Shown: one piece after another, positions 7,701 to 42,581 of the stretch
Position numbering within the stretch: the first letter of the stretch is position 1
How the letters are laid out: every line of letters begins with the position of its first letter
DNA from: Antedon mediterranea
Lineage: Eukaryota; Animalia; Echinodermata
Length of the DNA stretch: 64,000 bases
NCBI RefSeq assembly: GCF_964355755.1
Contig: NC_092673.1
Span: 25,848,269 to 25,912,268 of the forward strand
Direction: 5' to 3'
The notes under the pieces: generated by a model
What the model saw: only the letters and a program-made list of their open reading frames with translations
Database searches by the model: none
Told to the model about the DNA's origin: nothing
Made by a program: the position numbers and the translations under genes

Positions 7701-9924
7701 GGGAATAGTGCAATTCTTCCCTGGTCCAATTATCAAATTTTGTGTTTGTTTTTAGCTATAATGTACCATGTGATATATTTATGTCATGCATGTCAAAGCG
7801 AAACTGTATTCGGTTTACAAAACCAACATGATCTTGCAGTGAATCATTTAACCTATATAGCCTTCGGAAATTATACATTAATGTATTGGTATTATTCGTA
7901 TTGAATCAAACCCCCTCTCCTGGGGGTTCAATCAGATCAAATTGTTGAATAGATAGGCCTAATATTAAATTACATTTAAAAAAAGGTAACGTTTTAACAC
8001 GCGGTAGATAACATTTCCAATAACATAGTTTTCCGATAATCGATTTTGGATTTGTATACTAATTTTTGCGATGATCCTTGTTGATTACTGTATTAAATGA
8101 TATCACTTGATGATAATACTAAGTCCCATGTTAAGTACAAGCACAACAGGGATGATTGATATTAACACCTGCGGCACTAGTACTTAGTATAGGACCAGTG
8201 AGTATCGACTGGATGATTCGTAGCAGCTCAAATATCTAGATTTGTGAAGCTGGACTCTTGTAACGATGTCTTGCAGGAGAAGTAAAGACGTTGGACGTAG
8301 GAGACAACAAAACTATTATGTCCATTAGAAAGAACCAACAGTATGCGTATACGGTTGCATATTTTACGAATTCAGACTTTTTACATTTTTATCGATATTG
8401 TGTTATCACTGGAAAGAAATATTGACCGTAGCATAGAGAAACTGCGTGACTGTACAGTAGCATTGTTCAACAGGTCCCTCAGTCAACTATTAATACATAT
8501 ACAGTCTGCTTTGCCGTAAACCATGTTATTCTAAAAAGAGTAAAGTAAAGTTTGCATTCGCCATGCACATTTTTAAACAAAAGCAGGTCCTACCTAAAAT
8601 AACGGTAAAACAACAAGTTTAATAATAATAATAAATAATTAATATTTGTACACATAATGCAGGATATCTAATTATTTATCTTACTCGCATGGATTCACAA
8701 TAACGGTACGCTAACGAAATATCTCTTGTGCACGTAAAAGTCGTGTCATTAACGGTATAACACACATCCACTAACTACAGTTAAACACATAAAATTAAGA
8801 TTTAAAAAATATCCCTTGTAATATTTAAACAAAAAATGTTACTTTAAAAGGAAAACTGAGAAGAACTGTGTCCGGAGCTGGCCATTGATGCATATCTCGA
8901 ATTTTGAAGACTTGTAACCATTGGAGGTATAACTGATGCAACCTGTGGAAAGATGTAGCCGAGGCCTAGAAGTAAGAAAGTGCAGACACGCATCAAGAGC
9001 AGCAGGAGGAGCAGACGTTGCAATGGAACCATGGTGAATGATGATGGCACAACAAAGGCTGTTTTTCGAATGACACACCCTTTAATAGTAGCCTACCCTT
9101 ATAAGTTTCCAACGCTGGTCACATGCTAAAGTGTAATTAAATATTACGATCTATCTATCAATAGTCGTCACGTTGCGCATCATATGAATTGCATGTTTTT
9201 ATATATATATCGTGCCAAGTCATCGTGAACTCATTTTTAAGAAATGAAAAATATCATCCGGCATATTGCCTCGATTTCTAAGCCAACTATCACAGAGCCA
9301 ATACTTCCGCCAATGAGCTATGCTCGACGCGATTATGAGATCATATCTCGAATATGAGCACTGTTTCAATTTAACAGAGTGATTTACATATAATATCAAA
9401 GGGAATTTGGTTACCATAAACCATATTTTAGACCTGGTATAGATTCACCATTACTTTGATGTTCTGGACTACCTTTCATTCATGACTATATAATACAAAA
9501 TAAAGCATAAATGACAGAGATGACAACATTAATTCTTCAGTAAATATTTAGAGCATTGTAATTACAGTATATAGAGCTGGCAGGTGGTTGTGCCGTACAC
9601 TTGCTAATTAGTTATGCATGACTTGCTGGCCTTATGTGAATTCCTAACGTACCGTTTTGTATGCAGGAAGAGAGAAGCTACAAGTTACTGTCGCGTTGTT
9701 CATCATTAGTATGAATCTTAATGTCGTTAATTGTAAGCCTACAGTAATCATAATATTTGCTATGAGTTTGTGAAGTAAGGAAACTGACCACCGGAATATA
9801 TCCGTGAGTATCGTAAACTGCTGGTTTTTATATGTATTCCTTTTAGGACTATTCGTAAGATCACTGATCACACCCATGTACTCAGAGCCTTGGTTCAAGC
9901 TCTGTATACGCTATAAAAAAATGT

Positions 9925-10040: not shown

Positions 10041-12114
10041 AATTTGTATAAGTGTAGACAGCTTTAGAGAGACCGGCACAACGATTGGAGTGTCGAACTA
10101 TACCGAACTTAGTGCACTGTGTAGGCTACTCATTGGCAAATCAAGGAGACCTAAAAAGACCGTGAATATTAATTTTTAATTACTATATTAAATTACAGAA
10201 TTACGGCAGGTTTCGCTTTCCTTCCAACGATTAATGTTTGTTTAATTTCGTGAACCAATAACGACGTATGCCAGCCGATAAAAACTGTTTGTAGTTTGTA
10301 CATATGATTTTTGTTTAATTAATTTATGTTGATGGCGTGCAGTTTATACATTAAAGCGCAAATTGTTCAACATAAATTTCATTATTTGTTACGATTTGAT
10401 TGGAAGAAAAAAACAAAAAATGTTTGGTTACGTAATAATAACTATTTTAATACTTACCATATCAGGAGTTAATGTTACAGAAAAGAGTCGTTTTGACATT
10501 ATAAATACACAAGTACGGTAGTAGTCCAGATATATGTTTATTTCTGGTAATGAAACAAACAAACCATCCTCTCTATAATGGTGATCATGTGGTGGCGGAT
10601 ATGCGCTGTCGAGCATGTGACGGCTATTTCGAACTTTAGCAGACATGTTAATGTGTTTAACAAGTTAATAAATGAAATAATAGTTCGACTGGAAAAATAA
10701 TTATTATTGATGTGTAAGGTATTTTAGGCCTATATAAAGAAACATTAGTTTAAAAGAATGTATTGAATAAAGTTTCTGAAAAGGGAACAAATAAATTTTA
10801 AAAATAAAGAAACATTTAATGTTATAAAATGCCAGTATTATGTATTCTGTCCTGTCCTGTCCTGATTCTTTTTACCGACCCGTTTCGTAGATAGTTGTTT
10901 TGTTAACTAATGTTACATAATACTTTCTATATGCCATTATTAATTATTATTTGCAAGATTATGTTTTAAATTTAGTGAATTTATACTTTTGAAAGTAGTC
11001 GCTAACAATGATAAGTTTTGAGAACTCTTTTTTTTTTTTTTCTTTTTTGTGGCGTTAACCACTATTTTATTCATTTCATTCTCAAATGATCAATACAATG
11101 ATTTTACACTTCATCCAAATATATATTCCCTTGTTATTCTGTTCTGTTATTTTCTTGTACTTTCTTTTATCTTTAGTACGATTTGATCGAAACAACTCGG
11201 TCAAATATATATATATATATACTTTATACTTTTATATGTATTATCCACTTTTTTCATTATTTTCTTTTATTTTAACTATTCCTTTCTACAATAGGTCTAT
11301 GTCTCTGTACAAAACACACAAGTGCATATATTCGAGTATATGATTGCACACATGCATACATACATACCCACGACAAAGGTATATAAATAAATAAATATTT
11401 ACAATATATAAAATGCAATACAATTATTATTCTTAATTCTTTTTTTTTTTTTTTTTTACAATAAGAACATAAATAAAAATATAAAATTCAAATAATTATA
11501 GTAAGCTTAAAAAAAAAATCTTTCCTTACTCTTGTGTTTTAGTTTTATGTCTCATGGTTATATTTGTTGCTTACTTATATGTTACGTTTCGTTTTGTTTT
11601 TAATATTTATTTCATTTATTTTCATTTTTTTTTTTTTTATATAATTCTATATAAACCTCTGTAGAATATACCGTATTATAATAGTCGGTTAAGGTATAAC
11701 CTATTATTTTTTTCTGCCAAAAAGAGGCGAGAAAGTGAACCATAATTCCATTTCTTTACTTTCTTCAAAATGTGTGCTTTATAGATACAGAAGCATCCAA
11801 GAGAGAACATGTGGTCAACAGAACTCTTTTTTTTTGTTGCCACAGCTGGTGGTGTTTTCGAGAAAAAAAAAAGATGATATTTGTGATAACATTAATTACG
11901 TTACGTTACGTTACGTCATAACAGTACCAATACCGGTATATAAGACTACCGTACAATAATGTATGATAAACACTTAAAATATCAATATAGATGAATGGTA
12001 CCAATACCTGCGATGGTGAAAATAATGAATAGAAGATGATTAAATGACCCAGATAGTTCACCATGATGACGTATGAAATATTTACTTATACCTTATTAAG
12101 CAGCAATGTACAGG

Positions 12115-12235
12115 TAAAGTATGACGTCATTCTTACCTGCGGCACTACTACTTAGTAGAGTACGAGCAATAATGAACTTTCAACCAATCACCGCGGGCCT
12201 CCTGTATGCGTGTAAATAGCCAATCACGATCTCGG
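12115..12235. promoter_or_regulatory. Promoter-like cluster with a palindromic CRE TGACGTCA (12119-12126) and two CCAAT boxes (ccaatcac at about 12184 and 12222).
   Basis: The motifs are seen directly. No confident gene is found next to it, so its function is unassigned. Confidence 0.25.
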
Positions 12236-19465: not shown

Positions 19466-21615
19466 ACTTATAATATAGATTAGGATGTATTCCTTTTAAT
19501 GTTTTGTTATTCATTGTTAGGTCCTATTGAAATCATTCAATTTAGTCGCGTGTCGGACGGACATCCTCGTGTTTTTGTATCACACGTCGTACACTTTGAA
19601 ATATGGCATTGTGTACACATGAGAACAAGGCACGCGCTATTTAACATAAACCATAAAGATCAAACTCCCAAATATAGGCTTACTGCCATAGAGGAAATAA
19701 ATATGTATTATAATGGTTCCCTTCCACGTATTAATAATAGAGGAAAAAGTAATAATTCTGTTAACAAAATAGTATTAGCGACATGTGCAACGTTATGTCC
19801 TAGCGCTGCAATAATTATTATTTCATCAACTTTCAACTAAGGAGGTATAGGCCTATACATACAAATATCAACTCATCTATTAAGCCGTAATTCTTTGGTA
19901 ATCGGTACAAATAAACACGACATTGAACGAAAAAATAATATTTATATTATTATTATTAATCATCGTAATAATTATAATTGTTTTCGTTGTAAAACATCAA
20001 AATGTAAACCCTAAAAAAAAGCACGTATTACTGTACTTTATTTTGGTTATTCTAAATTATAAACCTGTTGTTTTTGCTAATATCATGCAAACTTCCCGTA
20101 GATCTACTACGAATTTATTACAGGCCTATTAATATTTATAAAAACCGCTCTCTTACCAGAATATTTCCATTCGATATTGATAAATGAAGGCACAGTATTT
20201 TCCTTTTCAAAGGTCCTGGTACCGGTATAAAGCACTATCTTCCGACGCACTCTTTGTGTATGAAAAATAATAATATTAATATGTTATACGGCAGCATCTA
20301 TTAATACTATAGACCTATAGTAGGATGTTAAAAACCTTTTAGAAATCAGCTACCAGAGAGAAATGTTATTTTTGTAACAGACACGTTGCATTTTCATCTC
20401 TAATTGTATACGTTTAGTTTATTCAGGTTTAATCGTTTAGTTATGCTCATAAAAATTGCATGGTTCAAGTTGTTTATTGTCTGCGTATGTGTGAGAAATT
20501 TAGCCATGTGTTGTATAAGCTACAAATGATTTGGATTTATTAAAAATTGTTATAATATGCGAAAATGCGAACAGACCATATGTAGGCATGGCAAGTTAAT
20601 ATCGGTAGTCGAAAAATGGTAGGGAAATAAATCAAATAAAAATTAAATCAAGTCTATTTTTAAAACGTATCTTCAAACCAGATAAACATTTTCAATCAAA
20701 TCAAGTCTATTCTCATTGTTAAAAATTTATCCATCGGTGAAAAAATCATTTTCATTTAGGCCTATATCATTAGCATATAGTGTGCATTAATGGGAAATAC
20801 ATTAAATGTTCTAAATAACAATTGTGAATAAAATTAAAAAGTTGTTAAAAATGAAATTAGTAGGGCCCTATGCCGTCTGATTACCGTTGATATTATTTTT
20901 TTTAATTATTTCTATATTATAATTTATTATAATTCTATGTTTGTACGCCCGCTGTATTAAAATATGCCATAACACACTCGACTACCGGTAAACCTAAGTA
21001 TTGCTGGTTTTCCGTATGCACGGGTTGTTAAAATTATGGAAAGTCATCACAAGTAATGGCAATTTATCTGGTTTCTACTTCATTTATCGTTGCATAATTA
21101 TAGCCCCATAATAAACTACTCTACGCCTACAAACTTTATTTTTCCATGATTTTCCATGACTTTTTTTTCTTTTTTTTTAAATCACGATTGGCCAATTTAT
21201 TATGTTTTTTTCTAATAATAAGACCATGGAGGTATAAAAAATAGATTAGAATCTATTTTTATACCTCCATCAGTAGACCATGGAGGAAACAATCATTAAT
21301 TTAAAAAAAAATATATATATATACATTGTCCTTCATGGGTAGACAAATATCCCATAATTTAATGACAATACTGTATAAACAATATAAAAAGTTGCAAAAG
21401 TTGTAAGTAGGGGAAATCCCCGAATTCGTGCGATACCGGAAAAGCATATACTACATAAATTCAACCATGCGTGACAGTTACCCTGGATCGGATCGTCGAT
21501 AAAAATAAAGTGTGGGCCTATATATAACATTCATTAACAAGATGTTTCTAAAACTATCTAGCATCGTCATATATGATCTGAACTTCTTGTTTGTAGTAGA
21601 CTTATTGATGCAAAA

Positions 21616-23307
21616 ATGAGTCTGCCGAACTTTGTAGAATTGGGAAAGAAGATTGTGTGTGTTGGTAGAAATTATGCGTAAGTTATTAGCCTTAGTTAGC
21701 AGGTAGGTCTGCCTAGCTAGGCCTAATTAATAGGAGGCCTGACTGCTAGTAAACAAACACTCAGCAGCCCAGTGAGATCTATCCTATAGAGAAGCCTTCG
21801 GGTACATTACTCATTTTTTCCACATAATAGATTCTATTCGGACAAAAACTTTGTGACGACAGAATTCATTCTATGTAGACAAAATTCATTCTGTGTAGAC
21901 AGAATTCATTCTGTGTCAAAAAAATTCATTTTGTGTCAACAAAATTCATTTTGTGTCAACAAAATTAATTTTGTGTCGACAAAATTCATTCAGTGTCGAC
22001 AAAGTTCATTTTGTGTCGAAAAAATTCATTTTATATCGACAAAATTAATTTTGTGTGCTGAGCCTACTCAAGAGTGAGACAGAACGTTTTAACATGCAAA
22101 TTAGAAGGCAGAGTTTTTAATGGAGCCTCAAAGATTGACAGTTATATTAATTTTATTTCCCCAACCTTTTCTACTAACACTTTATAATTACTTGATTTAC
22201 CAGCAACAGTCCAATATAATTATGGAAGTCTTAGTTGAGCAGCAGTGAAATAAAATTTGATGATCGATACTGAAAAGAAAGACACGCATTTTAAGTGTAA
22301 TGAAGCATCTTTATTTAAAACCCCATGCGTCGACTATACCAATTGTTCTTGTTATTAAAGAAATGTCTAATATTGCTTCAACATGGTAGAGACTAACTAG
22401 GCTACTACTAGAAGTGTACAAGAGCCTAGGCCTAGACTAAACTGTCATTTATAATATTTTAATGCCATATGGTTTTTTCCTGAGAGTTGCCGTCAACCAA
22501 TAATAATGCCCTAGAAAATGTTGTACCCAAAATTTCACTAAACTGTCTTTTTACAAATTTTTAGAGATCATGCCGTGGAATTGGGGAACGAAGTTCCAAC
22601 AGAACCACTGTTATTTTTAAAGCCGACTACGGCATACTTACAAGAGGGAAGCTTAATTAAGGTAATTTTGTGTTGTTTTTAGTGAAAATACAGTCTATAG
22701 AAGCCCTTATTTGGGACACTGTCACACCCCTCTATTCATTTGATATTATTTTCTAATATAGGTAATAATAGATAATTAATTCAGCATTGCAACATCTACG
22801 AATAATTCTTGTTAATGCTTCTAGATGCCTCCTGGTTGTACAGACCTTCACCATGAAGTTGAGCTTGGAATTGTCATCGGAACCAAAGGTTCCAACATCC
22901 CAGAAGCATCAGCAATGAACTATGTTTGTGGGTATGTTCTGGGTCTTGACATGACTGCTAGAAACCTTCATGATGCTGCTAAGAAGAATGGTCATTCGTG
23001 GACGCTAGCAAAGTCATTTGACACGTCTTGTCCCATTAGTAAATTTGTCGAAAAAGATTGTGTAAAAGATGTTGATAATGTAAGATTATGGTTGTCCGTT
23101 AATGGAAATATGCGTCAAGACGGAAACACAAGCGATATGATTTTTAAAATTCCAACACTTATTAGTTATATTAGTCGTTCGATGACCCTTGAACCTGGCG
23201 ATGTTATATTAACTGGGACCCCCTCTGGATTTGGACCAGTAAAGTCTGGCGATGTCATTGTGGCTGGTCTAGACCAACTCCTGGAAATGTCTTTTACAGT
23301 CGCCTAA
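21616..23307 (+). CDS. FAHD1: FAHD1-like acylpyruvase / oxaloacetate decarboxylase (fumarylacetoacetate hydrolase domain protein), copy A, 3 exons, 213 aa.
   Basis: join(21616..21677,22565..22661,22825..23307). The translation is [21 protein letters not shown]|[32 protein letters not shown]|[19 protein letters not shown]...[11 protein letters not shown]...TVA*. It aligns residue-by-residue with human FAHD1 ([57 protein letters not shown]). Donors are GTAAGT and GTAATT, acceptors are TTTTAG and TTCTAG, and the phases are consistent (62+97+483 = 642 nt). Confidence 0.9.
21850..22065. repeat. Tandem array of about 20-22 bp (gtgtcgacaaaattcattttgt-like, about 10 copies) in intron 1 of FAHD1 copy A.
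   Basis: Copy B has no counterpart. The array is part of a roughly 560-bp insertion (21815-22375) relative to intron 1 of copy B. Confidence 0.8.
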
Positions 23308-23404
23308 TTTCCGATTACTGTATAAATAAGGTTTTAATAGTCTATCTGTTGGAATTTGTTGGTGGGTATTGAGCAAATTCTAGGAACCTCTGGACGTAAC
23401 CAAT

Positions 23405-23495
23405 AAAAGTGTTAAACTTGCCTCAATTGATATAAGACTCTGAGCTTTATTGGTTTCAAGAGTATTTTGATCTCGAACAGTGGCGAGTTCTAGGT
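23405..23495 (-). pseudogene. Orphan fragment of the MVP penultimate exon (its 3' end plus 11 nt of the following intron) lying downstream of FAHD1 copy A.
   Basis: 23410-23490 is about 90% identical to 27936-28016. The latter is the real 3' end of the MVP exon at 27947..28138 plus its GC donor. Translated on the - strand it reads ...[28 protein letters not shown]. Homology stops abruptly on both sides. Confidence 0.6.
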
Positions 23496-24472
23496 CTGAT
23501 CGCCAACCCACAGTAAATGTAAAATGTGCTAATTTACATGCAAAACTATTATAGGCCTTTAAAACAAAATAATCTGATCTACCTATTGTAAGTTGCTGAG
23601 CATATTTGTTAAATATTATCCACTGCAATAAGAGATTACTGCAGCAATCTGGGATTAGGCCAAATCTTCGCAAAGTGTATACTTGTTTACTTAAATATGA
23701 CCGGCCACTTACCGGCGTTCCCATCTTATTTAGGCCTACGTGTGGGTATAATTATTATGTTTTCTTTGTAGAAAGCAAAGTGTTGCAGATGCCATATTAA
23801 ACTATTGAGTTTCTAAAATACTTCCTTCATGATTTATTATTTTAAATTATTTTTATATTATAGTTTATTATAATGCCATGTTTGTACGCCCACCTGTATT
23901 CAGATATGCCATAACACACACTACCGGCGGTGAACCTAAGTATTGCTGGTTTTCCATGTGCACGTATTGCAGTTGTTACAATTATGGAAAGTCATCACAA
24001 TTGCATTGGAAATTTAACTGGCTTATGCTTCATTTATCTTTATATAATTATGCCTCCACAATAAACTACTGTACGCCTACGAACTTCATTTCCATGACTT
24101 TTTTTAAAACCACGTTTGGCCAATTTGTTGTGTTTTTCACAGGTGACCATTGAGGAAACAATAATTGATCTAAAATTATATATTTTCCTCCATGAGTAGA
24201 CAAATATCCCATAATTTAATGACATTACTGAAACAATAATGATAATAAGTTGTGAAAGTTGTAAGTAGGGGAAATCCAGTAGGGGAAATCCCCGAATTCA
24301 TGCGACACACCGGAAGAGCATACCACATATATTCAGTCATGCGTGACAAAACGTTACCCTGGATATCGGATCGTCGATCAAGTGTGTGGGCCTGTACAAG
24401 ATGTTTCTAAAACCACCCGGTATCGTCATATGATCTAAACTTCTTGTTTGTAGTAGACATATTGATGCAAAA

Positions 24473-25597
24473 ATGAGTCTGTCGAAATTTGTAGAATTGG
24501 GAAAGAAGATTGTGTGTGTTGGTAGAAATTATGCGTAAGTTTAGTGGCCTTTTAGATAGTTATCAGGTAGGCTAGGTCTGCCTAGCTAGGCCTAGCTAGG
24601 CCTAGTGGTAGGCCTGACTGCTAGTAAACAATCCTATGGAGAAGCCTCCGAGTAGCCTGCTTCGACATGGTAGAGACTAACTAGGCTACTACTAAAAGTA
24701 TGCAAGGGCCTAGACTAGACTGTCATTTACATACTTTATTACCATATTGTTTTTTGCAGAGAGTTAATAAATTAATAGCGTAGGTCCCCTAGATGATTTT
24801 GTATCCAACATTGCACAAAATTGTTTTTTTACATATTTTTACTTTTATTTAGAGAACATGCTGTGGAATTGGGGAACAAAGTTCCAACAGAGCCACTGTT
24901 GTTTTTAAAGCCGACTACAGCATATTTATCAGAGGGAAACTCAATTAAGGTAATTTTGTGTTTATATACATTTGGTTGTTTTTAGTGAAAACGCAGTCTA
25001 TAGTCTACAGTCTATACCCCTCTATTTATTAGATTTTATTTTCTAAAATAGGTAATAATAGATAATTTATTCAGCATTGCAACATCTACGAATAATTCTT
25101 TTTAATGCTTCTAGATGCCTCCTGGTTGTACAGATCTTCACCATGAAGTTGAGCTTGGAATTGTCATTGGAACCAAAGGTTCCAACATCCCAGAAGCATC
25201 AGCAATGAACTATGTTGGTGGGTATGCTCTGGGTCTTGACATGACCGCTAGAAACCTTCAAGATGCTGCTAAGAAGAAAGGTCACCCGTGGACACTAGCA
25301 AAGGCATTTGACACGTCTTGTCCCATTAGTAAATTTGTCGAAAAAGATCGTGTAAAAGATGTTGATAATGTAAGATTATGGTTGTCTGTTAACGGAAATA
25401 TGCGTCAAGACGGAAACACAAGCGATATGATTTTTAAAATTCCAACACTTATTAGTTATATTAGTCGCTCGATGACCCTTGAACCTGGCGATGTTATATT
25501 AACTGGGACCCCCTCTGGAGTTGGACCAGTAAAGTCTGGAGATGTCATTGTGGCTGGTCTAGACCAAGTCATGGAAATTTCTTTTACAGTCGCCTAA
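24473..25597 (+). CDS. FAHD1: FAHD1-like acylpyruvase, copy B. It is a tandem paralogue of copy A, with 3 exons and 213 aa.
   Basis: join(24473..24534,24853..24949,25115..25597). It has the same exon structure and phases as copy A and is about 92% identical in protein ([21 protein letters not shown]..., VGGYALG versus VCGYVLG, and so on). Both copies are intact with conserved splice sites. Confidence 0.9.
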
Positions 25598-26734
25598 CTT
25601 CCGATTATAAATATGGTTTTAATAGAATTTGTTGGCGGGTATTGAGCAAATTCTAGGAACCTCTGGACATATCCAATAGTGAAACCGATTGTAAAACATT
25701 TGATTGGGTATTATTAGCCAAATAACAGATTGTTTTTGTGCAGTTTCCAGCTGCAACAATTCCTAAAATAATTAAAGTACCTGCAGAATAAATAATACAG
25801 TATGTGTTTGATGATTGTAGAAAATATGTTGTTATGGATGCTATTAAAAACAGTCAATTATGTTTTGCAAATAAATCTACATTTTATTATTTAATTATCA
25901 TGCATAATATTGTATTGATATGTAGGAAACACAGAAAGTGTATTCACAATAGTTTAGATTATACACTGTTTTTTTTTCTTGAACTGTGGTCAATAAAAGA
26001 ATTAAATTCACAATTTAGTTTGTAAACACGTTTCATGTGACCTGATCTTTCTTTGTATAGACAATGTAGGTATATGTATACATTGGTTCATAATTATAGC
26101 ATACCTATATTATTTTTTTTTTCACAATAAACAACTGAATACACATACATATATAAAATATTAATCTTTAGGTAAGCCTAAAATACCACTATTATCAATT
26201 AGAAAAAATAATAAAAAAACTAAATATTACATTAAAAAAAATATAAACTCAATATTGCATAACATATTCTCTATGCTTCATTACCTCTTGTTTAACAATA
26301 AGCATGCCATGCTATTATCTTTGAGAACCATTAACCTTTTTGCAAAGTTTGAAACACTACAATACTCATGTTAATAAATCTAACATCTTAAAATAGTGCT
26401 GTATTAACATTTTTTATGACATAATGTTTTTTTTTATTTTTTATTTTATTGTGCATTTTAAGAAATGTTATGGTGCCTGTTCCTGTTATTTACTATGCTG
26501 TATATGCTTTTTTTTAAAAATTGTATTTTTTTTTAAACAATTTCTTATTTTTTCAGATGGGTTTTAAGATTAGTTTCTAGGTGACACATCTGTGAATGCT
26601 GTTATTTCTTTACACGGTGAGTTTTCTGATTTTTTTTCTGCATACTGCATGTATATATCTTTTACAAAATGGTTACTTCTATTGCAAAATACAGTTAACA
26701 ATACAAAAATAAATAGACTACTCTTACTACTAAT

Positions 26735-26858
26735 GCTCTGTCTACACTATCAAACTAGGTTGACGACAAAAAAAAGTGTAGTAATATGACATGTTCATAG
26801 ATGGGTACATCACATTTTTTGGTCACATAAAGTTTGATAGTGTAGAGAGAGCTTGAGG
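26735..26858. mobile_element. MITE copy with both terminal inverted repeats, in the FAHD1-B / MVP intergenic region.
   Basis: It begins gctctgtctacactatcaaactag and ends ctttgatagtgtagagagagct. Confidence 0.75.
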
Positions 26859-27026
26859 TTAAATAATATATGAATAAACATTTTATTCTCCGACATAAAA
26901 TAGAATATAACATTATATATAATTCTTTTTGTAAACTACTGTAGGCCGCAATTCCTAAATCATGGGATAAAATTTTGGTTAAATTCAAACAAGTTTCCAT
27001 TTCAATGTATTTACTTGGCGTATATT

Positions 27027-30000
27027 TCACTTGGTACCAATAAGACCATGAGCCGTATTTAAAAGGTTGATGGGATTGTTGCCATCGGTGATAAAAGTGG
27101 TCTCAAGTCCAAGTGCTTTCAGCAACTTAACCTGGTGAAAGAGAAATAAACAGATTAGCATTCTTGGTTGTTGTTTTTTTCAATTTCATACGCATTCAAC
27201 AGCAAGCACAGACTCACCAATTACTGGATGAATAAACTATTTTATAATTGTGATGCTCATAAACTAAGTCTCATTTAAGGCTTAGGGAGTGGAATTGAAA
27301 GAGTCGTGAATTACAACCCTGGCATGGTCAGGATTGAACCATGGACCTTGGGATTGGAAGGCAAACACGTTAACCACCAAGCTACAGCTCCACTTGTCAT
27401 GGTAATTGTAATGGTTGGAACAGTCACAGATGGATGCAGTCTATATGAATGTATGTACCCTATCCTCCTTACCTGCATTTCTGGACCTGCAACTGCTATA
27501 CCTGATATTGTATCTGCTCCTAGAGTATTAACAATCTTCTTAAACTTGGATACCTATTTTTTAAAACAATCATTCTTAGTTTTAGGCTCGGTATGAATTG
27601 AAGAAGACTAAAATTTGCTGGAAACTTTCTTCGCAATAAAGAAGAAATCATTGCTGTGGCAGCCAAAACATGTGCTTGCAAAAAAAGGATGACCAGCACT
27701 CACATACATTTATGTACTAGAGGCGGGTTCTGGTATGCAGAGAGATGAACTGGCTGTCACAATGGCAGATAGGAAGTTATAGAGGAATCTAGTCATATAA
27801 GTTTGGATATGTCCTGAGCTAAGTAAGTTAGTAATGAATTATGAAGAAATAAATTATAAAAGCCCAATAGTCTGTTAAAAAAACAAACTGATAAAAATAA
27901 TTGAATGAGAAAGCGAGTACTGTATTCTAAAAAGGGTTAAACTTGCCTCAATTGATGTAAGACGTTGAGCTTTATTGGTTTCAAGATTATTTTGATCTCG
28001 AACAGTGGCGAGTTCCAAGTCACGAAGTATAGTTGTAGTATCCAAATCTGATGCGTGTAGAATCTCATCGGCCTGCGCCTTCAGCTGGGCGGCTACTATC
28101 TCACTCTGGCACTCAATACGAAGCTTTTCTGACTGGGCCTAAAGATAATTTTTCATATTTGTTTTTATTATTTATTTTTCACCCGTCAATGTATCAGATA
28201 GGATTAAAGAAACCAGTCCGCCCTCATATCCTTCCCTCATGCGTCAAAGTTCATAAAAATCCACCCCTGATAATCAACATTGTTTGATGAACTGGTGCTA
28301 CAATTTTCTCTTCAATTATCAAGCATAATCACTTTTATCATAACTTGCCAAAATAACCAGGCCCATCACAGCTACCCCTGGATCTTGTAAATTCCAGCCA
28401 AATAGGTAAATAAATGCCAACCAAGCCCCCGACCAAGCCCTAATCAACTAAAGTCAACTACAAACAAAATGTTTACCGATGCTTCTGCCTTAGCCTGACC
28501 ACTTGACTCAATAGCAGCTGTCACTGCTTGTAGAGAATATAGCTGACATCTTGCCTTCTCTGCTTCTTTCTCATTGGATAGTTTCTGACGTTCTAATTCA
28601 CCTTTAGCCTTCTGCTCCATTCTGCTTGCCTCGTGCTCTGCTGATGCCTCAACAGATCTTTCATAAAGACTTATAATTAATAGTCTTGAAATCTTTCATA
28701 TTCAAAAACTTAGTTTTATTGAAATAATCTTGTAAAATAGTTCATATGTGGCCAACTAGTCCTCGGTACTGTATCTAAGTTTTCTAGTAAAATGTGTTTT
28801 AAATGTGGAGCCTGTCTCATAGGTCCTAACAATAATCAGGGCCTTAACCAGAATGAGGTAGAGAAGTCACTCCAACACAGCTTGTATACCCACTTATTTT
28901 AATCTCTCACAGACCTGATAGTTTATCAGCGTATTCACCCGCTTTAACCAAGATAGGAACTAGCATTCGCCGTCACAATGTATTTCAATGTCATAACTTA
29001 TTAACGTATTAATGGAACTGCCATACTCACCTTGTTGCTATTTCAATTGCCATTTGAACAGATTTCATCAGACTATCTCTCATATGCTTGTCAACAGGCT
29101 CAATACTTTGTACGTCAACATTGGTGATCACCTTTCAGGTAAAACAATCATTACTAACAAATTAATATATCGCACTATCTTTATATTTAAGGCTACAAAG
29201 AAACAACAACTAAACCACTTCAAAATAAAAATACCTTCAAAATATACATAGAACCTTTCCTGAAAACCTAACAAGGGGCAATATATGTACAGTATGTCTT
29301 CGCAATAATGGACAGGGGTCATAGAAAGGTCATAAAGGTCATGTGCATCACAAAAACATTAAAGAAATAATCCTAGATACAGTAGTATTAAAAGATACGA
29401 AACCATTTTAAAAGCATTATTTTGATTCCTCAGAAAAGCATGGGTGGGAATTATAATTTTATATATAAAATGTTATGTTTTACCAGTTGATTGGCCTCAA
29501 AATAGAGTCTATCTAACACCTTTCCATTGTCATCCACACCAAACACAGCAGCCCGTATTATCTTCACTGAAAACTTGTGGAATTCATCGAAACGAATGCG
29601 GGATACTGCACCTCGAATTCTGCCTCCTAAGAGTGAATTGATAACAAGTCTGGTAAGTTTAGTCATTTTTTTAAGCTCTAGTGATAACAGTTGTTCAGAT
29701 GTGATTGTGCTTAAGTATGAAAGCTTAAAATAGCCACCCACACTCACCATTATCAATTACTTGATTCACTTATAAAAGACTTACCAATCTCACGACAAGC
29801 AAATCCTATAAAATCTGGAACAGAAAAGATAGCCTGCTCTGACTTTTTGTCACCTTTTTTCACCTGTAAAGTGTTAATAGTTAATGGACAGTAAAGATAT
29901 ATTCTTAGAATTCTGAAAATAATTCATTATTTTAAATACAGTAGAACTGTAGAACTTTTTACTTAATAGTAGTTATAACCCTTTAATAATGGCTTCCACT

Positions 30001-33000
30001 TAATAATGGCTTCCCCCTTAATAATGGCTTCCCCCTTAATAATGGCTTCCACTTAATAATGGCTTCCCCCTTAATAATGGCTTCCACTTAATAATGTCTT
30101 CCTCCTTAATAATGTCTTCCCCTTAATACGGGTTACATCTTAATAAGGGTTTACCTGTTATAGGGGTTAGCCCTTAATTAGTGTTCCCCATAATACTGTA
30201 GGAAAGGAGGCGTTCTACTGTAATAAAAAGCAACCAATTTATACCTCAAAATGATTATTGCAGGCAATCTTGATTCGCAGTCTTGCATGGTCGGAAGTTT
30301 CTACCTGAAAGATTTGTTTAAAAAAAATTGTTTTGTTCTGTAATCAGTCTCTGTGATATTTCTTAACCAAGACTTTTATTGGTCGTTAGGCCATCAAGAC
30401 AGGGATGGTACACAAATGAGACGGTACCTGACTATGATGCATGTGTGTATTCTATACCATCATAGTAAATTAACATCTCCCTTTGCATATCATCCCAAAA
30501 CACTGAGCTCGCTATTTTGTGGCAATTAACAGAAATTTACCTCAATGATATCTGTGATGTAGTCTGGACCGAGCATTAGGCAAATTGTTTGAAGTGCATT
30601 TTCTCGTTTTGGCTTGCCAGCTGTAAGATAATAAATACTTTAATCTTAATTAAGTTAAGCGTGAAGTTAAGTTAGGAATTAAGATTAATTAAGACCTGTA
30701 CATCAGATATAGTTCAGCTAGAAAACAATGGAAGATAGCCGAACTACTTACTAAATCTTAACCTGACCCTCTAAATAATCTCTCACTATAAAGTACAAAG
30801 AAATCAAACTCCATACATCCACATTCAAAGTCTAGTCAATCCATTCTACTACACACACGGCTCAACAGAAAGTGTTTACATTAGTAAATTGTAGTTGGGT
30901 CAGTTCTTTATGTCACACCTTATGGATATGAATATAATGAAAATTCATGTTTATTTTGTGACGTTTTATGAGGGGTTCCCAACTGATGTACGAAAAGAAA
31001 TGTTGCGGTCAGGCTACTGTATCATTATGCTATATCCATATTAAAGCTATACAGGTAGGTATTCTTGAATACAGTAGTAAACAATGAGTTGTTACTTTAC
31101 CACTAAGGCTAAGAATATTAAAGTCTTCATGTGGGCCTAGGATTGCCATATCAGGACCAAACACAACTCTGCCAGTCTTCTCTTTGTATTTGTAAACCTA
31201 AAATGGTATGGTAAATTTAATACAATATTGCTTCCAATTTAATAAAATAATATTGTAACGGTAAAATAATAAAAATCAGTACCACTCTATGTATTTCAGA
31301 AAATTTCTATTCTAACAATACCTGAACAGCTGTGTTTCCTGGGCAACGATATGTAACGACTCTAGTTTTATCTCTTCCCTAGAAAAACAAAAGATTATTG
31401 TAAAGAAAAATTAAATCTGAGTTTATTTATTTTGTTTACAATGGATTGAAATTATCTACTCTCTTCCCAATAGTTGTACACACAGACTACCACAGCCTCT
31501 CAAGCTATAGGTAATCCCCTATTTAAAAGTACGCCACAAAAGTCATAACAAAAACATGAATTAAAATGGCTCATCAATTCAACAACGTAAAAATACTTAC
31601 CTTTTTACTAACATATTGTGGATCGATCGATGCTTCAAAATAAGCCATTTTGCGAATGTCATCAGCGCCACATCCACCCCCATTTCTGAAATGGAACACT
31701 TTCATTTTAACACAAGAAACGGATATACATACTTTTTACTACCTATGAACTGCATACTTTTAAGGAAGAGTACTGAGATTTGTAAACTAAATATAAATAA
31801 TTTATATCTTCCAGAAAGAGCTCACTTTAGTATTTCTTCAACTAGTGGTAATAACTTTTTTTCCCACAGCTCTTCATATTCCTCGAGAAGATACGATTGA
31901 GGACCCATGACCGCTCGAATCTTTCCCGTTTGTAAATGTCGAATGTAGATTCCTTCATTTTCTGCAAGAGATATGGCTTTCCTGAAAGGTAAAATAAACA
32001 AACACTGTTTAAAATTAATATCAATAATATAAAACAAAAAACAAAACACTGAAAAAAGAATCTAGGCCATAGGCATGAAATAGAGCATTAGCTTTCTTAA
32101 CCAACCAATCAAAACTCTGCTTACAGTACTATTGAATGGCAAACTAACCTTACAAAGCCACGGTCGTCTTGTTCCATCACATGCACCTGAATGGGTGGTA
32201 TGTATGATGCAGGCCCTTTGATCATCCATCTGTCCCCAGCCTTCCTTGATGGTTTACCTGCATATAGAGAACAATACATAGGTCGCATATGTCATGCCTC
32301 TGGACCAAGCATACAGATACAGTACATACAACAGGTTTGCAGGGATTGAATAGATTTAACACTAAAGCTCTGTCTACACTATCAAATGTATAGCTTTGCA
32401 GGGATTGAAAAAGTTTAACACTGAAGCTCTGTCTACACTATCAAATGTATAGCTTTGCAGGGATTGAATAAGTTTAACACTAAAGCTCTGTCTACACTAT
32501 CAAATGTATAGCTTTGCAGGGATTGAATAAGTTTAACACTAAAGCTCTGTCTACACTATCAAATGTATAGCTTTGCAGGGATTGAATAAGTTTAACACTA
32601 AAGCTCTGTCTACACTATCAAATGTATAGCTTTGCAGGGATTGAATAAGTTTAACACTAAAGCTCTGTCTACACTATCAAATGTATAGCTTTGCAGGGAT
32701 TGAATAAGTTTAACACTAAAGCTCTGTCTACACTATCAAATGTATAGCGTTGCAGGGTTTGAATAAGTTTAACACTAAAGCTCTGTCTACACTATCAAAT
32801 GTATAGCTTTGCAGGGATTGAATAAGTTTAACACTAAAGCTCTGTCTACACTATCAAATGTATAGCTTTGCAGGGATTGAATAAGTTTAACACTAAAGCT
32901 CTGTCTACACTATCAAATGTATAGCTTTGCAGGGATTGAATAGATTTAACACTAAAGCTCTGTCTACACTATCAAATGTATAGCTTTGCAGGGATTGAAT

Positions 33001-36000
33001 AAGTTTAACACTAAAGCTCTGTCTACACTATCAAATGTATAGCTTTGCAGGGTTTGAATAAGTTTAACACTAAAGCTCTGTCTACACTATCAAATGTATA
33101 GCTTTGCAGGGATTGAATAAGTTTAACACTAAAGCTCTGTCTACACTATCAAATGTATAGCTTTGCAGGGATTGAATAAGTTTAACACTAAAGCTCTGTC
33201 TACACTATCAAATGTATAGCTTTGCAGGGATTGAATAAGTTTAACACTATAGCTCTGTCTACACTATCAAATGTATAGCTTTGCAGGGATTGAATAAATT
33301 TAACACTAAAGCTCTGTCTACACTATCAAATGTATAGCTTTGCAGGGATTGAATAAGTTTAACACTAAAGCTCTGTCTACACTATCAAATGTATAGCTTT
33401 GCAGGGATTGAATAGATTTAACACTAAAGCTCTGTCTACACTATCAAATGTATAGCTTTGCAGGGATTGAATAAGTTTAACACTAAAGCTCTGTCTACAC
33501 TATCAAATGTATAGCTTTGCAGGGATTGAATAAGTTTAACACTAAAGCTCTGTCTACACTATCAAATGTATAGCTTTGCAGGGATTGAATAAGTTTAACA
33601 CTAAAGCTCTGTCTACACTATCAAATGTATAGCTTTGCAGGGATTGAATAAGTTTAACACTAAAGCTCTGTCTACACTATCAAATGTATAGCTTTGCAGG
33701 GATTGAATAAGTTTAACACTATAGCTCTGTCTACACTATCAAATGTATAGCTTTGCAGGGATTGAATAAGTTTAACACTAAAGCTCTGTCTACACTATCA
33801 AATGTATAGCTTTGCAGGGATTGAATAAGTTTAACACTAAAGCTCTGTCTGAACTATCAAATTTTATGTGACAAAAAATGAAGTGATCACACATTTTTTG
33901 TCAAACTAGTTAGTCATACCGTGAACTGCATCATCAATGAAATCTTCAATTGCCAGCAAAACTATCGCCTCATCTTCTGAGAGTACAAACTCTTTTTGAA
34001 TACCCTCTGGAATTCGTTCATCTAAATTAAGAGAATACCAGATGGAAGGTTAAAACAATTTCAACCATCTTTACATGGTCAAATCTTTCAGATAAACAAT
34101 TTTAGGAATTGGTACATTTTTTAGTACATTTAATTATGTATTTCTTGATTAAAATAAATAAAAAACCTTACTTGGATTGAGGAAGAAGCTTGTAACACCC
34201 TTGCGAAGTTCTTTTTGTCCAAGTCTCGGCCTTCCTGTCGAATTCACTGGATCGTGAATAACACAATATTCACCTTTAGCTAAAACTTTCTTTGTTACAA
34301 TGTCTGCCACAACCTGTAAACATACAATGATTTGAAACTGGATCAGAAAAAAAATGATTTACCTGAAAAAAAAATGTAATTTAAAGCAAGTCAAAGAATT
34401 ACAGTTTTTTTGTTTTTGTTTTTATAGAAGTGAATAACTTTATTAAAACTGCAAAATGGCCTATTTAAAGTCTGATTTTATTAATCTTAATTTTTCATGT
34501 TTTTGGAGGAAACATAACAGTATACATAACATAAAAGTAACATAGCGAACATGTCACTGTTTGCATTAACATTTCACTTTTTAAAACAGTAAACTGAAAA
34601 TTGTTTTTCTTTAGCTCAAAAAATTGACCCAAGTGTTTTTTATTTTGTTTTTAGATAATGGTTTTAACAGCCAGAAAATATGCTAGTTCTATGCAGATAA
34701 CCATTCCTCAAAGATGTAAGTGTTTCATAGTTTTTTTTAAATGTATTTGCAGTACCTCTCCAATCTCTGGAATATATGCCTCAATATCGTTTTTTGTGAT
34801 CAACCATGTTTGGCCCGACTTTCTTTCACGGCCAAGTCCATCAACGCAGGTCTGCTCAGCAACCATGTGTAAGCCAAGGTTGTCGTTTAGAATGTACGCT
34901 TTGACTTCTTCCAAATACTCCTCATAGACACCAGGAAGGTATGCTCCTGGTGTTCTAACTAACCACATCTCATCTGTTACACGATTCCTGTGTTTAAAAA
35001 GAGAGGCACAATAAAATTGCTCAATTTAACTGACAGATATTCACCATATTTAGCACCTAAAGCTCGGTCTACACTATCAAACAAAAAGTGTGTGATGTGC
35101 CCAAATATGGTAGTGATATGACATCATTTCTATATATTGGCACAACACTTTTTTTGTCAAACTAGTTTGATAGTATAGATAGAGCTTTAGAATTATCACA
35201 ATGTGTTATAAGCTACTGGTTATACCATGGAGAAATAAGTTAGTTAACTTATTTCTCCATGGTTATACATACTGCAGAGAATATTTACTTTTATTATGAA
35301 AGAACAAGGTAGGAAAAAAGATAAAAAGAACTTTGTAGGCAGACCATTCTGTAATAAAAAATATTCAAACCCATATTAAACCAGTTACTGCAGAAGTTTA
35401 AAAAGGGAAAATCAAGCCAAACATTAATGTATACTAACTTTCCATTGTCATCGGTAAAATCTTGTACAGCTCTCATTTTTAGTGCATGTCCTTCCTTCAC
35501 GATAAATGGCTTAATAATCCCCAAAATTTCCTGGAAAAAAGGTTTGAAAATAAATACGTCTACATTGCTTAAAAACACCTGTTTTTGTAAACTATTGAAC
35601 TTTTTAAAAACTTACTACATTAGGATTTGGGTAATATGTCAACGGACCAATAAGCTGAAAGCAATCACCAGCGGTACGCTGAACATCGCCATCCTGGTGA
35701 TCCAGAAGAACTTGAAGTCTAATGGCATGATTTGATTTAACAACTGGTAAAGGGCGCACAGCTTTTGAATATGAACCACCTGAAAAGACACAAAAATCTA
35801 TAAATCTATGACACTTTCAACTTTTAAAAATTCAATCCAAAATATTACTGATTAAGTATTAAGTATCTTTTACCTTGAATTCCTTCAATTTGTTATATAT
35901 AATGTATGTTTTTGTAGATATTTACCTAAATGTATATCTATCTATAAATGTGTGTGTACTACAGTTTTGTAAATTACTTGGTTAGTTGTCTTTGAATTAT

Positions 36001-37909
36001 TGTTATTATATTGTAAATGTTCTCTACTGAACCACTTCAATCAATGATTTAGCACTGAGTGAAAGCGTCATTCAATATAATGACAGAATAAATAATAATT
36101 ATTACATTGGAGCAGGTGAAACCTATTAATCTGTGTATTGAAATTATTTTATGCTTGCTTCATTTCCATATTTCGCTTTACTAATTTAATAACCTGAATA
36201 CATACAGGCTAATGTAGAGTAAAAAAATAACAAATTTAGTTTGCAATGTCATAATTTACCTTTAGAGATATATTCTTCAGCGTTGACAAGAATCTCGCCT
36301 GGATACAGAGGAAATGGTGCCTAAAATTAAAGAAAGACTGTTTTATATGAAATTTAAATGAATTTTCTCTGCTTTGATACAACATACAGTAAACCAGACA
36401 CAATAACTGACACACTCACTTAGAGATCATGATATTGTTTATATCATTTACCTGGTGAAATCGAACATCAAAATGGCCATGTTCTACCTCGCATTGTTTA
36501 CCTTCTTCCAATTTTCTAAAAAAACAAAATTATGTAACAAGTTAAAAATTGTTAATTAAAAAATACTAATACTGGTTCAGTCCATGTGATTTACGAATGA
36601 GGTCGGGGTGGGTGAAACCTTATACTAGATGGAAGGTGAGGGTGAAACCTTATAGGGTGAGGGTGAAACCTTATAGGGTGAGGGTGAAACCTTATAGGGT
36701 GAGGGTGAAACCTTATAGGGTGAGGGTGAAACCTTATAGGGTGAGGGTGAAACCTTGTAGGGTGAGGGTGAAACCTTGTAGGGTGAGGGTGAAACCTTAT
36801 AGGGTGAGGGTGAAACCATATAGGGTGAGGGTGAAACCATATAGGGTGAGGGTGAAACCTTATAGGGTGAGGGTGAAACCTTATAGGGTGAGGGTGAAAC
36901 CATATAGGGTGAGGGTGAAACCTTATAGGGTGAGGGTGAAACCTTATAGGGTGAGGGTGAAACCTTATAGGGTGAGGGTGAAACCTTATAGGGTGAGGGT
37001 GAAACCATATAGGGTGAGGGTGAAACCTTATAGGGTGAGGGTGAAACCTTATAGGGTGAGGGTGAAACCTTATAGTAGGGTGAGGGTGAAACCTTATAGG
37101 GTGAGGGTGAAACCTTATAGGGTGAGGGTGATTTCTCATCATCTCATCTTAGATTTATCCATGGTGTTCCTACTTTACACACAAGAGTATGACACTATCG
37201 GTAACTGCATGCAATTTAAAGTCTTCTAAGTTATACTTGTTGGTTATCGTATCGGCACAGGTAACAGGTACATGGACCATATTGATAACGTACATAGAAA
37301 ATAGTAAATTACATGCAAAGTTGACGTGCTGTAATAGTCACTCCCCGTACAAGAGTATGCAGAAATTGTTCTTATTTTCTTACTTGACTGGGTTTTTAAC
37401 AGTGCAATAACCAGCTGGTGGTAATATTATACAAGACAGCGGTCCAGCTAATAGTTTCTCATTTGATTGCAGAACAAGACGTTGAGGACCCGTCTCAAGA
37501 TGAGTAATGTTGGTTGACTGAAAAAGAACAAAAACAGATTAGTGAAATGTCAATCGACCCAGTGAATTGTTTTGGTCGGACCAGATTTATAAATTAAAAT
37601 AATGATATAAGAAGAACATTTATAATGATTGATATTGCAGCTCATTATAATTCAATAAAGACAATGAATTTATGTGAATAGTCTAGGATGAGGTAGTAGC
37701 ACCTCATACAGAAGGAAGCCACTTTCTTACTTCCCATTATAGTTGTTCTGTTGAATGTTGTTTGTTTTAGGAATAGAGGATCAGGAGAGGTGGGCGTACA
37801 AAAACATAAAACTGGTCCAACAAACTGTATGTAGGCCTATGCCCGAATTCTATCATTATCATACCAAATCAAGAACGTGCACAAACTCTGTAGGGCCTAT
37901 TCCTATCAT
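27027..37909 (-). CDS. MVP: Major vault protein (MVP), 23 coding exons, about 853 aa.
   Basis: complement(join(27027..27131,27473..27553,27947..28138,28477..28657,29031..29131,29484..29626,29785..29863,30244..30303,30541..30620,31101..31197,31322..31378,31601..31685,31826..31981,32149..32257,33920..34021,34172..34313,34756..34987,35439..35530,35616..35779,36260..36320,36452..36515,37384..37517,37865..37909)). Exon translations match human MVP block by block: [36 protein letters not shown]-like [118 protein letters not shown]...[17 protein letters not shown], and [27 protein letters not shown], followed by a stop. All introns are GT-AG except a GC-AG donor at 27945-27946. Phases are consistent throughout and the total is 2562 nt. 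Exon 1 ([15 protein letters not shown], donor GTATGA) is the least certain. Confidence 0.82.
27175..27430 (-). mobile_element. tRNA-derived SINE copy (the tRNA-like head reads on the - strand) in the MVP intron before the last coding exon.
   Basis: The - strand reads tggagctgtagcttggtggttaacgtgtttgccttccaatcccaaggtccatggttcaatcctgaccatgccagggt, with box A (TAGCTTGGTGG) and box B (GGTTCAATCC) motifs. It is about 85% identical to the copy at 41110-41345. Confidence 0.7.
29983..30180. repeat. Tandem array of about 20 bp (cttaataatggcttccccc) in the MVP intron.
   Basis: Seven to nine head-to-tail units, decaying at the 3' side (cttaatacgggttacat...). Confidence 0.8.
32339..33850. repeat. 59-bp tandem satellite, about 25.6 copies, inside the MVP intron between the exons at 32149..32257 and 33920..34021.
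   Basis: The unit gcagggattgaataagtttaacactaaagctctgtctacactatcaaatgtatagcttt repeats head-to-tail with a few point variants (gaatagattt, gggtttg). The unit contains the MITE terminal repeat aagctctgtctacactatcaaa. Confidence 0.9.
35058..35190. mobile_element. MITE copy with both terminal inverted repeats, in the MVP intron.
   Basis: It begins aaagctcggtctacactatcaaa, is followed by gtgatgtgcccaaatatggtagtgatatgacatca..., and ends tttgatagtatagatagagcttt. Confidence 0.8.
36603..37131. repeat. 21-bp G-rich tandem array (agggtgagggtgaaaccttat, about 25 copies) in MVP intron 2.
   Basis: Perfectly periodic with variants ccttgtag and ccatatag. It produces the artefactual repeat ORFs RVRVKPY and HPHPIRF in the six-frame track. 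Confidence 0.9.
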
Positions 37910-38725
37910 CTGCCCGTTTATGCTGATTGAATCGCCTCCAAATCTCTGCATTTTACGTTGATTTTGTTGCAGTTATGTGTACTTCTTATTTTGTTTCCTG
38001 TGTTTTTGTTTATAAATTTAACTGGATATACGCACAGCGGCTGTGTATGTCATAAAACCACAGCCGTGCGTATAGCTGGCAACGGTTCTCTTAACTTTAC
38101 CGTTGGTGGCGACAAAATTCGGAAATTGCTGTTGTTTTCGTTTGTGTTTTTGAAATCTATAATTCTTATAAAAAAATATCAAATATAAGCTGTAAACAAA
38201 GTATTAGAGTAAGTTTATAATCGGTAGAGATGTATTTGAGAATAATACTTTTTTAATTTATCGAAACAAGCCTAAATTATAATCAGAAAGCCAGCTAATG
38301 ACCGCTTTCATATCAAGTCTCACCGTAGCCTGGCTCTGGCCTTCTACACACGTTCGCACGCAGTTCGCTATCATCATGTGCCGGTGTAGGCCAGGCCTAT
38401 GTAGTTCTGGCCTAGCTAAGCTTTTTTTCAATGAGATACTTTTAAAATATTTTACTATGGCCTAGGCATAATTTTTATTCAAAACGCCGTCCTAAATAGA
38501 AACAATTAAGGAACAAATTTAATAAATAAGATAAAATACCAAATAAATTATTCTGCAGCTATCAAATATGAAGAAGAAGGCTGTTTTTTTCCCCTTTTCT
38601 TTCCCTTTTCTTTGTTTTGATTGATGATACAGTTATTCAAATCAAAACGACTACTATTACTAACTTACATGTCATTTTTGTTTGTTTTTTCATATTAATG
38701 AATGTTCTTTTATTTCAGAATTACC
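37910..38725. promoter_or_regulatory. Divergent (bidirectional) promoter region between the MVP ATG (37909, - strand) and the BUB3 ATG (38726, + strand).
   Basis: The two genes are head-to-head with about 0.8 kb between their start codons. The region is GC-richer (cgttcgcacgcagttcgc, ggtgtaggccaggcc). It contains an imperfect palindrome tatacgcacagcggctgtgtatgtcataaaaccacagccgtgcgtata at 38024-38074. An acceptor at 38711-38718 implies that the BUB3 5'UTR exon lies within this region. Confidence 0.5.
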
Positions 38726-41700: not shown

Positions 41701-42581
41701 AGATCTACCCTGTGAATGCCATTGCCTTTCATAGTGGGCATAATACATTTGCAAGTGGAGGCTCTGATGGATTCGTAAACATCTGGGATGGATTTAACAA
41801 GAAGCGGCTATGTCAGTTTCATAGATACCCTACCAGTATATCATATTTAGCTTTCAGGTAATGAACGATATAGTATATAAGCCCCTTCTAGGGTATATAC
41901 TTGCCTTACCCTAAACCCAGTGAATGTGTCCTTCCGGCCTAGGATTCCACAAATGTACTAATTCTGTCTAATGCACATAATAATGCCCAATAATTTCTAA
42001 TTATTGACAAATGCAAATTTTCTTTTTTTATGATCCAATATGTTTGAATATAATTGTAAACAGCGAAAGTAAAAAGTAAGTTTAAGATTTTAATTCAAAC
42101 ATGTGAGATCATATCAAAGGAAAATTTGCATTTATCAATAATATATAAAGATCCAGATGAATCTTTTCACTAATTTCCAATTTAAAGAATTAAATAGTGA
42201 TATTAGTGATATGCCCAAATATTGTAGTGATATGGCATCATCATGTCCATATATGGGCACATCACATTTTTTTGTCACATAAAGTTCCAGATCCAGATTT
42301 TATTCTCGAGTATGAGCCCACTCTGGGGTATAATGTCCATATATGGGCACATCACATTTTTTTGTCGCATAAAGTTCCAGATCCAGATTTTATTCTCGAG
42401 TATAAGCCCACTCTGGGGTATAATGTTACTAATTATTTTAATGATTTTCTCTTTTAGTCATGATGGTAGTATATTAGCAATCGCTTCATCATACATGTAC
42501 GAAAATGGTGACATTGATCATCCTGATGATGCCATTTTCATCAGAAAAGTTACCGACCAAGAAACCAAACCAAAAATTTAA
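38726..42581 (+). CDS. BUB3: Mitotic checkpoint protein BUB3 (WD40), 6 coding exons, 326 aa.
   Basis: join(38726..38923,39232..39301,40000..40151,40795..41058,41685..41857,42458..42581). It begins [45 protein letters not shown]...AVLDCCFY|[23 protein letters not shown]|[51 protein letters not shown]|[70 protein letters not shown]...YAFKCHRLK|...[36 protein letters not shown]|[16 protein letters not shown]...KPKI*. It is near-identical to human BUB3 over its whole length. All introns are canonical GT-AG with consistent phases (981 nt). The ATG lies 8 nt after an acceptor (TATTTCAG at 38711-38718), which implies an upstream 5'UTR exon. Confidence 0.92.
41110..41345 (-). mobile_element. tRNA-derived SINE copy in BUB3 intron 4.
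   Basis: It is homologous to 27175-27430 along its whole length (ctcatttgaggcctagggagtgagttgaaagagttgcgagttacaacc...ggattggaaggcaagcaagttaaccaccaatttacagctcca). Confidence 0.7.
42207..42425. mobile_element. MITE-related internal segment, partially duplicated in tandem, in BUB3 intron 5.
   Basis: gtgatatgcccaaatattgtagtgatatggcatcatcatgtccatatatgggcacatcacatttttttgtcacataaagttccagatccagattttattctcgagtatgagcccactctggggtataatg is followed by a second partial copy. Confidence 0.6.

Follow-up and report, generated by a model that had tools for sequence, protein, structure and literature searches.

The stretch of DNA analyzed here (the window) comprises 64,000 nucleotides from the crinoid Antedon mediterranea, positions 25,848,269 to 25,912,268 of contig NC_092673.1 in RefSeq assembly GCF_964355755.1, and is AT-rich (~30-37% G+C), as would suit an animal genome. 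The minus strand of the window from 37951 to 27027 contains, with high confidence, a single-copy and intact gene for the major vault protein (MVP), translated from a start codon at 37951, in which intron 21 is an ordinary U2-type intron whose donor changed from GT to GC in the Antedon lineage. An earlier note, made from the letters of the window alone, had described a complete 23-exon MVP gene at this location. When the minus strand of positions 26800-38200 was cut into the 23 intervals implied there, joined and translated, the exon intervals, their phases and the total of 2562 nt were all reproduced; the phases are consistent, and the frame is open for 853 amino acids and ends in a stop codon, TGA, at 27029-27027. 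The total stands for the exons as first drawn but not for the true coding sequence (CDS), which is 2604 nt once the start is moved to 37951. The corrected gene, with exon 1 at 37951..37865, has 23 coding exons and a product of 867 amino acids. All but one of its 22 introns are GT-AG introns; the remaining one, intron 21, is a GC-AG intron. The elements of the gene are listed below in the direction of transcription. Except where a line gives other evidence, each exon is supported by the exon chain together with introns shared with the sea star Patiria miniata.

37865 to 37951, minus strand: exon 1 as corrected, 87 nt; start codon ATG at 37951-37949, with the ATG at 37909 that was first proposed now internal (Met15)
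37384 to 37517, minus strand: exon 2, 134 nt; intron positions common to Patiria
36452 to 36515, minus strand: exon 3, 64 nt
36260 to 36320, minus strand: exon 4, 61 nt
35616 to 35779, minus strand: exon 5, 164 nt
35439 to 35530, minus strand: exon 6, 92 nt
34756 to 34987, minus strand: exon 7, 232 nt; split by an additional intron in Patiria
34172 to 34313, minus strand: exon 8, 142 nt
33920 to 34021, minus strand: exon 9, 102 nt
32149 to 32257, minus strand: exon 10, 109 nt
31826 to 31981, minus strand: exon 11, 156 nt; split by an additional intron in Patiria
31601 to 31685, minus strand: exon 12, 85 nt
31322 to 31378, minus strand: exon 13, 57 nt
31101 to 31197, minus strand: exon 14, 97 nt
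30541 to 30620, minus strand: exon 15, 80 nt
30245 to 30304, minus strand: exon 16, 60 nt
29785 to 29863, minus strand: exon 17, 79 nt
29484 to 29626, minus strand: exon 18, 143 nt
29031 to 29131, minus strand: exon 19, 101 nt
28477 to 28657, minus strand: exon 20, cap-helix, 181 nt; exon chain, PDB alignment and Patiria introns
27947 to 28138, minus strand: exon 21, cap-helix, 192 nt, ending ...RLTSIE; exon chain, PDB alignment and Patiria introns
27554 to 27946, minus strand: intron 21, GC-AG, phase 0, 393 nt; GC at 27946-27945 and acceptor AG at 27555-27554
27473 to 27553, minus strand: exon 22, 81 nt, starting VSKFKK...
27027 to 27131, minus strand: exon 23, 105 nt, including the stop codon TGA; exon chain and RefSeq identity
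26882 to 26887, minus strand: AATAAA, ~140 nt 3′ of the stop codon, read from the sequence and likely to be the polyadenylation signal

The product was taken in the earlier note to be MVP from the repeats through the shoulder and cap-helix to the C-terminus, and the Pfam domain set, an end-to-end alignment to solved structures and identity to a RefSeq protein all agree with this. All Pfam matches exceed the curated gathering cut-offs. Vault (PF01505) is matched in four stretches (173.7 bits, E 6.5e-52), Vault_2, Vault_3 and Vault_4 (the PF17794, PF17795, PF17796 set) at 61.9, 112.3 and 37.5 bits, respectively, and MVP_shoulder (PF11978) follows the repeats, with residues 531-648 matching positions 1-118 of a profile of 118 (155.7 bits, E 6.2e-46). 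In a phmmer search of the PDB, residues 2-851 align to residues 8-850 of solved mammalian MVP chains (E 1.4e-237); the cap-helix and cap-ring, ~650-851 in the query and ~650-850 in the solved chains, align without gaps, and this region spans the intron 21 junction. The best database match, with 100% identity over 100% of the query, is RefSeq XP_071947945.1, annotated as "major vault protein-like [Antedon mediterranea]" (867 amino acids), and the CDS with exon 1 at 37951..37865 translates to a string identical to it. The locus is the Antedon MVP gene, already annotated under this accession, and is nothing new in kind. The next match is to the crinoid Anneissia japonica (84% identity), followed at 59-62% by ophiuroid, hemichordate, asteroid, echinoid and holothuroid MVPs. 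All echinoderm classes among the homology matches have MVP, as do most non-ecdysozoan animals. In mammals, 78 copies of MVP build a barrel-shaped ribonucleoprotein shell. By homology, the Antedon protein would be the shell subunit of the vault particle, with N-terminal repeats, a shoulder, a long cap-helix coiled coil and a cap-ring, and its likeness to chains solved inside assembled 78-mer vaults suggests that it would likewise assemble into vaults. No vault RNA gene was called by Rfam anywhere in the window.

Exon structures were rebuilt for the MVP genes of P. miniata and A. japonica, and the introns mapped onto an alignment of the three proteins. Each of the 22 introns in Antedon falls on the identical alignment column, and in the same phase, as a Patiria intron, and Anneissia introns match in column and phase in 17 of 17 comparable cases, the Anneissia model being N-terminally truncated. 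Patiria has two additional introns, which split the counterparts of Antedon exons 7 and 11. As intron positions and phases are common to these relatives, all boundaries of the hand-built exon chain are validated. The public Anneissia MVP model (679 amino acids; VUNX01015869.1, 7137-9530 and 10001-17910) lacks its N-terminal part; exons 1-5 are present in a separate gene call of 159 amino acids just upstream, and the locus has 2899 N. The Anneissia MVP gene was thus split in annotation.

The donor of intron 21 is located in the context ATTGAG^GCAAGT (^ denotes the splice site) and the acceptor, immediately before 27553, in the context aaaaatAG^GTATCC. Use of these sites generates the junction ...RLTSIE^VSKFKK..., which aligns without gaps to mammalian ...QLAEVEAKKFKQ... 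(rltsievskfkk versus qlaeveakkfkq). The corresponding donors are GAA^gtaagc in Anneissia and GAG^gtaaga in Patiria; both introns are GT-AG, phase 0 and located in the identical alignment column, after ...TSIE and ...CGIE, respectively. The non-canonical donor GCAAGT (27945-27946) that the earlier note had placed after the exon at 27947..28138 is, therefore, borne out by the sequence, the alignment and intron orthology. As the intron is present at the same site as a GT-AG intron in both Anneissia and Patiria, the intron is old and the GC derived; it is a U2-type GC-AG intron at an anciently conserved position, in which a lineage-specific T>C transition took place after Antedon and Anneissia diverged. 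The donor conforms to AG^GTAAGT at 7 of 8 positions, differing only in the C at +2, and is surpassed by a single donor of the gene (8/8). Such a strong match around the GC is typical of known GC donors. GCAAGT lacks the U12-type donor motif (A/GTATCCTT). With all other donor positions matching the U1-complementary consensus (AG^GCAAGT), the GC donor would presumably stay usable. GC-AG introns, which the major spliceosome removes, account for slightly less than 1% of all introns (PMC7072748), so that one among 22 would turn up quite often and is unremarkable, and GT>GC conversion is a documented evolutionary event (PMC2490688). Comparative evidence and agreement with the RefSeq model both point to the use of the 27947^27553 junction as drawn.

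Two points weigh against the gene model as presented. As the RefSeq model is itself predicted, its agreement does not independently prove the splicing. In addition, MVP orthologues from distant echinoderms have short N-termini (MAGVVNIGP... in Patiria, MSGLVNIGP... in Amphiura) that are closer to the short start of the earlier note than to the start at 37951.

This last point is the basis for what is still an unlikely reading, that translation initiates at the ATG at 37909, with the 14 codons upstream belonging to the 5′-untranslated region. Non-crinoid echinoderm MVPs have ~5 residues before the IGPxEFV motif, nearer to the MIGIGP... that translation from 37909 would generate than to the 17-residue version. 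There is, however, an in-frame ATG at 37951-37949, 42 nt upstream of 37909, and no other in-frame ATG lies between it and the preceding in-frame stop codon (TAA, 37975-37973). The base at -3 is A for the ATG at 37951 but C for that at 37909. The RefSeq model starts at 37951, and the 14 additional N-terminal residues of the RefSeq protein (MQRFGGDSISINGQ) are encoded in the window immediately upstream of 37909, in frame. In Anneissia, exon 1, which is followed by gtatgt, likewise has the upstream ATG, and of the 14 residues in the extension 10 are identical; the codons for 5 of these 10 identical residues differ from those in Antedon, synonymously only, including an AGC/TCC serine switch, whereas the position of the Met encoded at 37909 is occupied by ATA (Ile). 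Based on the RefSeq identity, the conservation of the ATG and peptide in Anneissia and the better -3 context, the start is placed at 37951, 14 codons upstream of the position in the earlier note. The translation start would then be conserved among crinoids, and the 14-residue extension appears to be crinoid-specific.

The gene was also searched against the rest of the window by tblastn and blastn, and only one additional piece of MVP was found.

23405 to 23496, minus strand: dead 92-bp copy of the 3′ end of exon 21 (75 nt) and the first 17 nt of intron 21; 92% identity to 27930-28021, with GCAAGT kept

This copy, reported in the earlier note as a captured fragment that preserves the GC, does so, and has the same orientation as the MVP gene. 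It begins exactly at the end of a duplicate block, 22374-23405, that matches 24658-25678 at 86% identity, and a second pair of duplicate blocks is formed by 21435-21756 and 24309-24631. The 22374-23405 block carries the terminal exon of a FAA_hydrolase (FAHD-like) gene, which occurs twice in tandem, at 22825-23307 and 25115-25597, both on the plus strand; both 160-amino-acid open reading frames (ORFs) are intact, with Pfam E values of 1e-51 and 1e-53, respectively. The FAA_hydrolase gene is convergent with, and downstream of, MVP in both Antedon and Anneissia, and the 92-bp copy is located just beyond the 3′ end of the upstream FAHD-like paralogue, on the strand opposite to it. The simplest reading is that a tandem duplication originally covered both the 3′ exon of the FAHD-like gene and the 3′ end of MVP, and that the left copy later lost ~2.25 kb by deletion. 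The 92-bp fragment would then be a leftover of a local tandem duplication rather than a gene, and lends some slight support to the C at +2 not being a local assembly error.

There is only a small chance that the GC at 27946-27945 is such an error, or a rare allele, and that the functional donor is a canonical GT at the same position. The orthologous donor is GT in both relatives and one base separates the two states, but the independently evolving 92-bp copy likewise reads GCAAGT, so that the C either predates the duplication or was present in both copies, and the window encodes exactly the RefSeq protein, with no hint of a local error. With a single haplotype, the C at 27945 may be a polymorphism.

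It is conceivable, but very doubtful, that the GT>GC change makes splicing of exons 21 and 22 regulated or, separately, that RNA from the 92-bp copy is antisense to the GC donor; no observation favours either. Exons 21 (192 nt) and 22 (81 nt) could both be skipped in frame, and regulated splicing would result in isoforms of MVP whose cap-helix is shortened. If the 92-bp copy were transcribed within the 3′ end of the upstream FAHD-like gene, the RNA would be antisense to the GC donor.

Alternative splice sites were enumerated, taking GT and GC donors within 60 nt of the end of exon 21 and AG acceptors between 60 nt before and ~40 nt after the start of exon 22. The earlier claim that only the GC donor joins these exons in frame holds insofar as this donor is the sole route to ...RLTSIE^VSKFKK..., but six in-frame, stop-free combinations with GT donors do exist, with exon ends at 28004, 27964, 27943 or 27889 and acceptors at 27553, 27544, 27538, 27535, 27519 or 27516. 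Use of one of these GT donors instead of the GC, giving a slightly different protein, is hardly credible. No equally good GT donor is present nearby, as every in-frame GT product deletes or adds residues: each combination loses 10-25 residues of the gap-free conserved cap-helix and cap-ring or gains unaligned, intron-derived residues. The donor consensus is poor throughout (for example ACT^gttcga, AAC^gtctta and CAA^gtttaa), and the orthologous intron in the two relatives is located exactly at the position of the GC. No more deserving of consideration is a pseudogene or non-vault paralogue at this locus, as, although several invertebrates have a pair of MVP-like genes (in Asterias, Lingula, Littorina and Oscarella there are matches at ~60% and ~49% identity), the frame of 867 codons is intact, 44 of 44 splice sites are usable, the protein groups with the higher-identity (~60%) echinoderm set, and the intron positions and FAA_hydrolase neighbour are conserved with Anneissia.

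Three introns of the MVP gene contain large minisatellites: intron 9 (32336-33862; 59 bp x 26 copies, 98% matches), intron 2 (36635-37131; 21 bp x 23.5 copies) and intron 16 (29979-30128; 18 bp x 8.6 copies). The 59-bp unit in intron 9 has the motif 'gatagtgtagacagagctttag' in common with dispersed short inverted-repeat elements, one of which is located in intron 6 (~35070-35210) and one just 3′ of MVP (~26800-26860); these elements and the 59-bp minisatellite look like satellites derived from miniature inverted-repeat transposable elements. Intron 22 includes a tRNA-like stretch (~27320-27395, minus strand; ggagctgtagcttggtggttaacg...ggttcaatcctg...) that was called by neither ARAGORN nor Rfam and may be the remnant of a tRNA-derived short interspersed element.

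Elsewhere in the window, there are two mir-252 precursor hairpins on the minus strand, at 8123-8195 and 12088-12163, ~4 kb apart, with Rfam scores of 62.2 and 61.2 bits against a gathering score of 45; they are probably a tandem microRNA duplicate. A satellite-like tandem array at ~54100-55400 (plus strand) gives rise to several long, overlapping, artificial ORFs, (MYVFKYNVCVQIQCMCSN)n, and has a local GC skew of +0.23. The ORF at 42243-42581 (plus strand) is a short piece with no Pfam match; its tail resembles the C-terminus of a BUB3-type WD40 protein.

Compared with known MVPs, the gene described here is the same as that encoding XP_071947945.1, with which its product is identical over 867 of 867 residues from the start at 37951, whereas the model in the earlier note lacked the first 14 residues. 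The mammalian MVPs (PDB 4V60 and 4HL8 from rat, 9z4w and 11dr) are colinear with the Antedon protein from R1 to the cap-ring, with the same Pfam domains and a gap-free cap-helix. The Antedon protein does not, however, have the C-terminal tail of ~40 residues present in the mammalian chains of 890-893 amino acids, and carries two insertions, one of 13 residues within the second repeat region and one of 6 residues (QDDRGF). The possibility that these are mis-spliced intron sequence was rejected, as both insertions have counterparts at the same positions in other echinoderms and the flanking introns are conserved; they are genuine echinoderm features. The human MVP gene has ~15 exons, as opposed to the 23 coding exons in Antedon. 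To our knowledge, no crinoid vault particle has been studied.

The Strongylocentrotus purpuratus MVP, an echinoderm orthologue from a different class, has 59% identity over 88% of the query. Vaults from sea urchins have been purified, imaged and compared structurally with mammalian vaults, and Drosophila and Caenorhabditis elegans are without vaults (PMC550661). The suggestion in the earlier note that a full gene here would be useful for vault biology was, accordingly, overstated, given that the gene is already XP_071947945.1, that MVP is present in all echinoderm classes returned and that sea-urchin vaults have been characterized (PMC550661). Nor is there anything unusual in intron 21 relative to other U2-type GC-AG introns, which it resembles in the GC donor, the AG acceptor, the otherwise perfect consensus and the GT>GC conversion at a conserved intron. 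The value of the analysis is rather as a quality check, in that a hand-built gene model proved to be right except for its start codon, and the comparison with Anneissia dates the GT>GC change to after the Antedon/Anneissia split.

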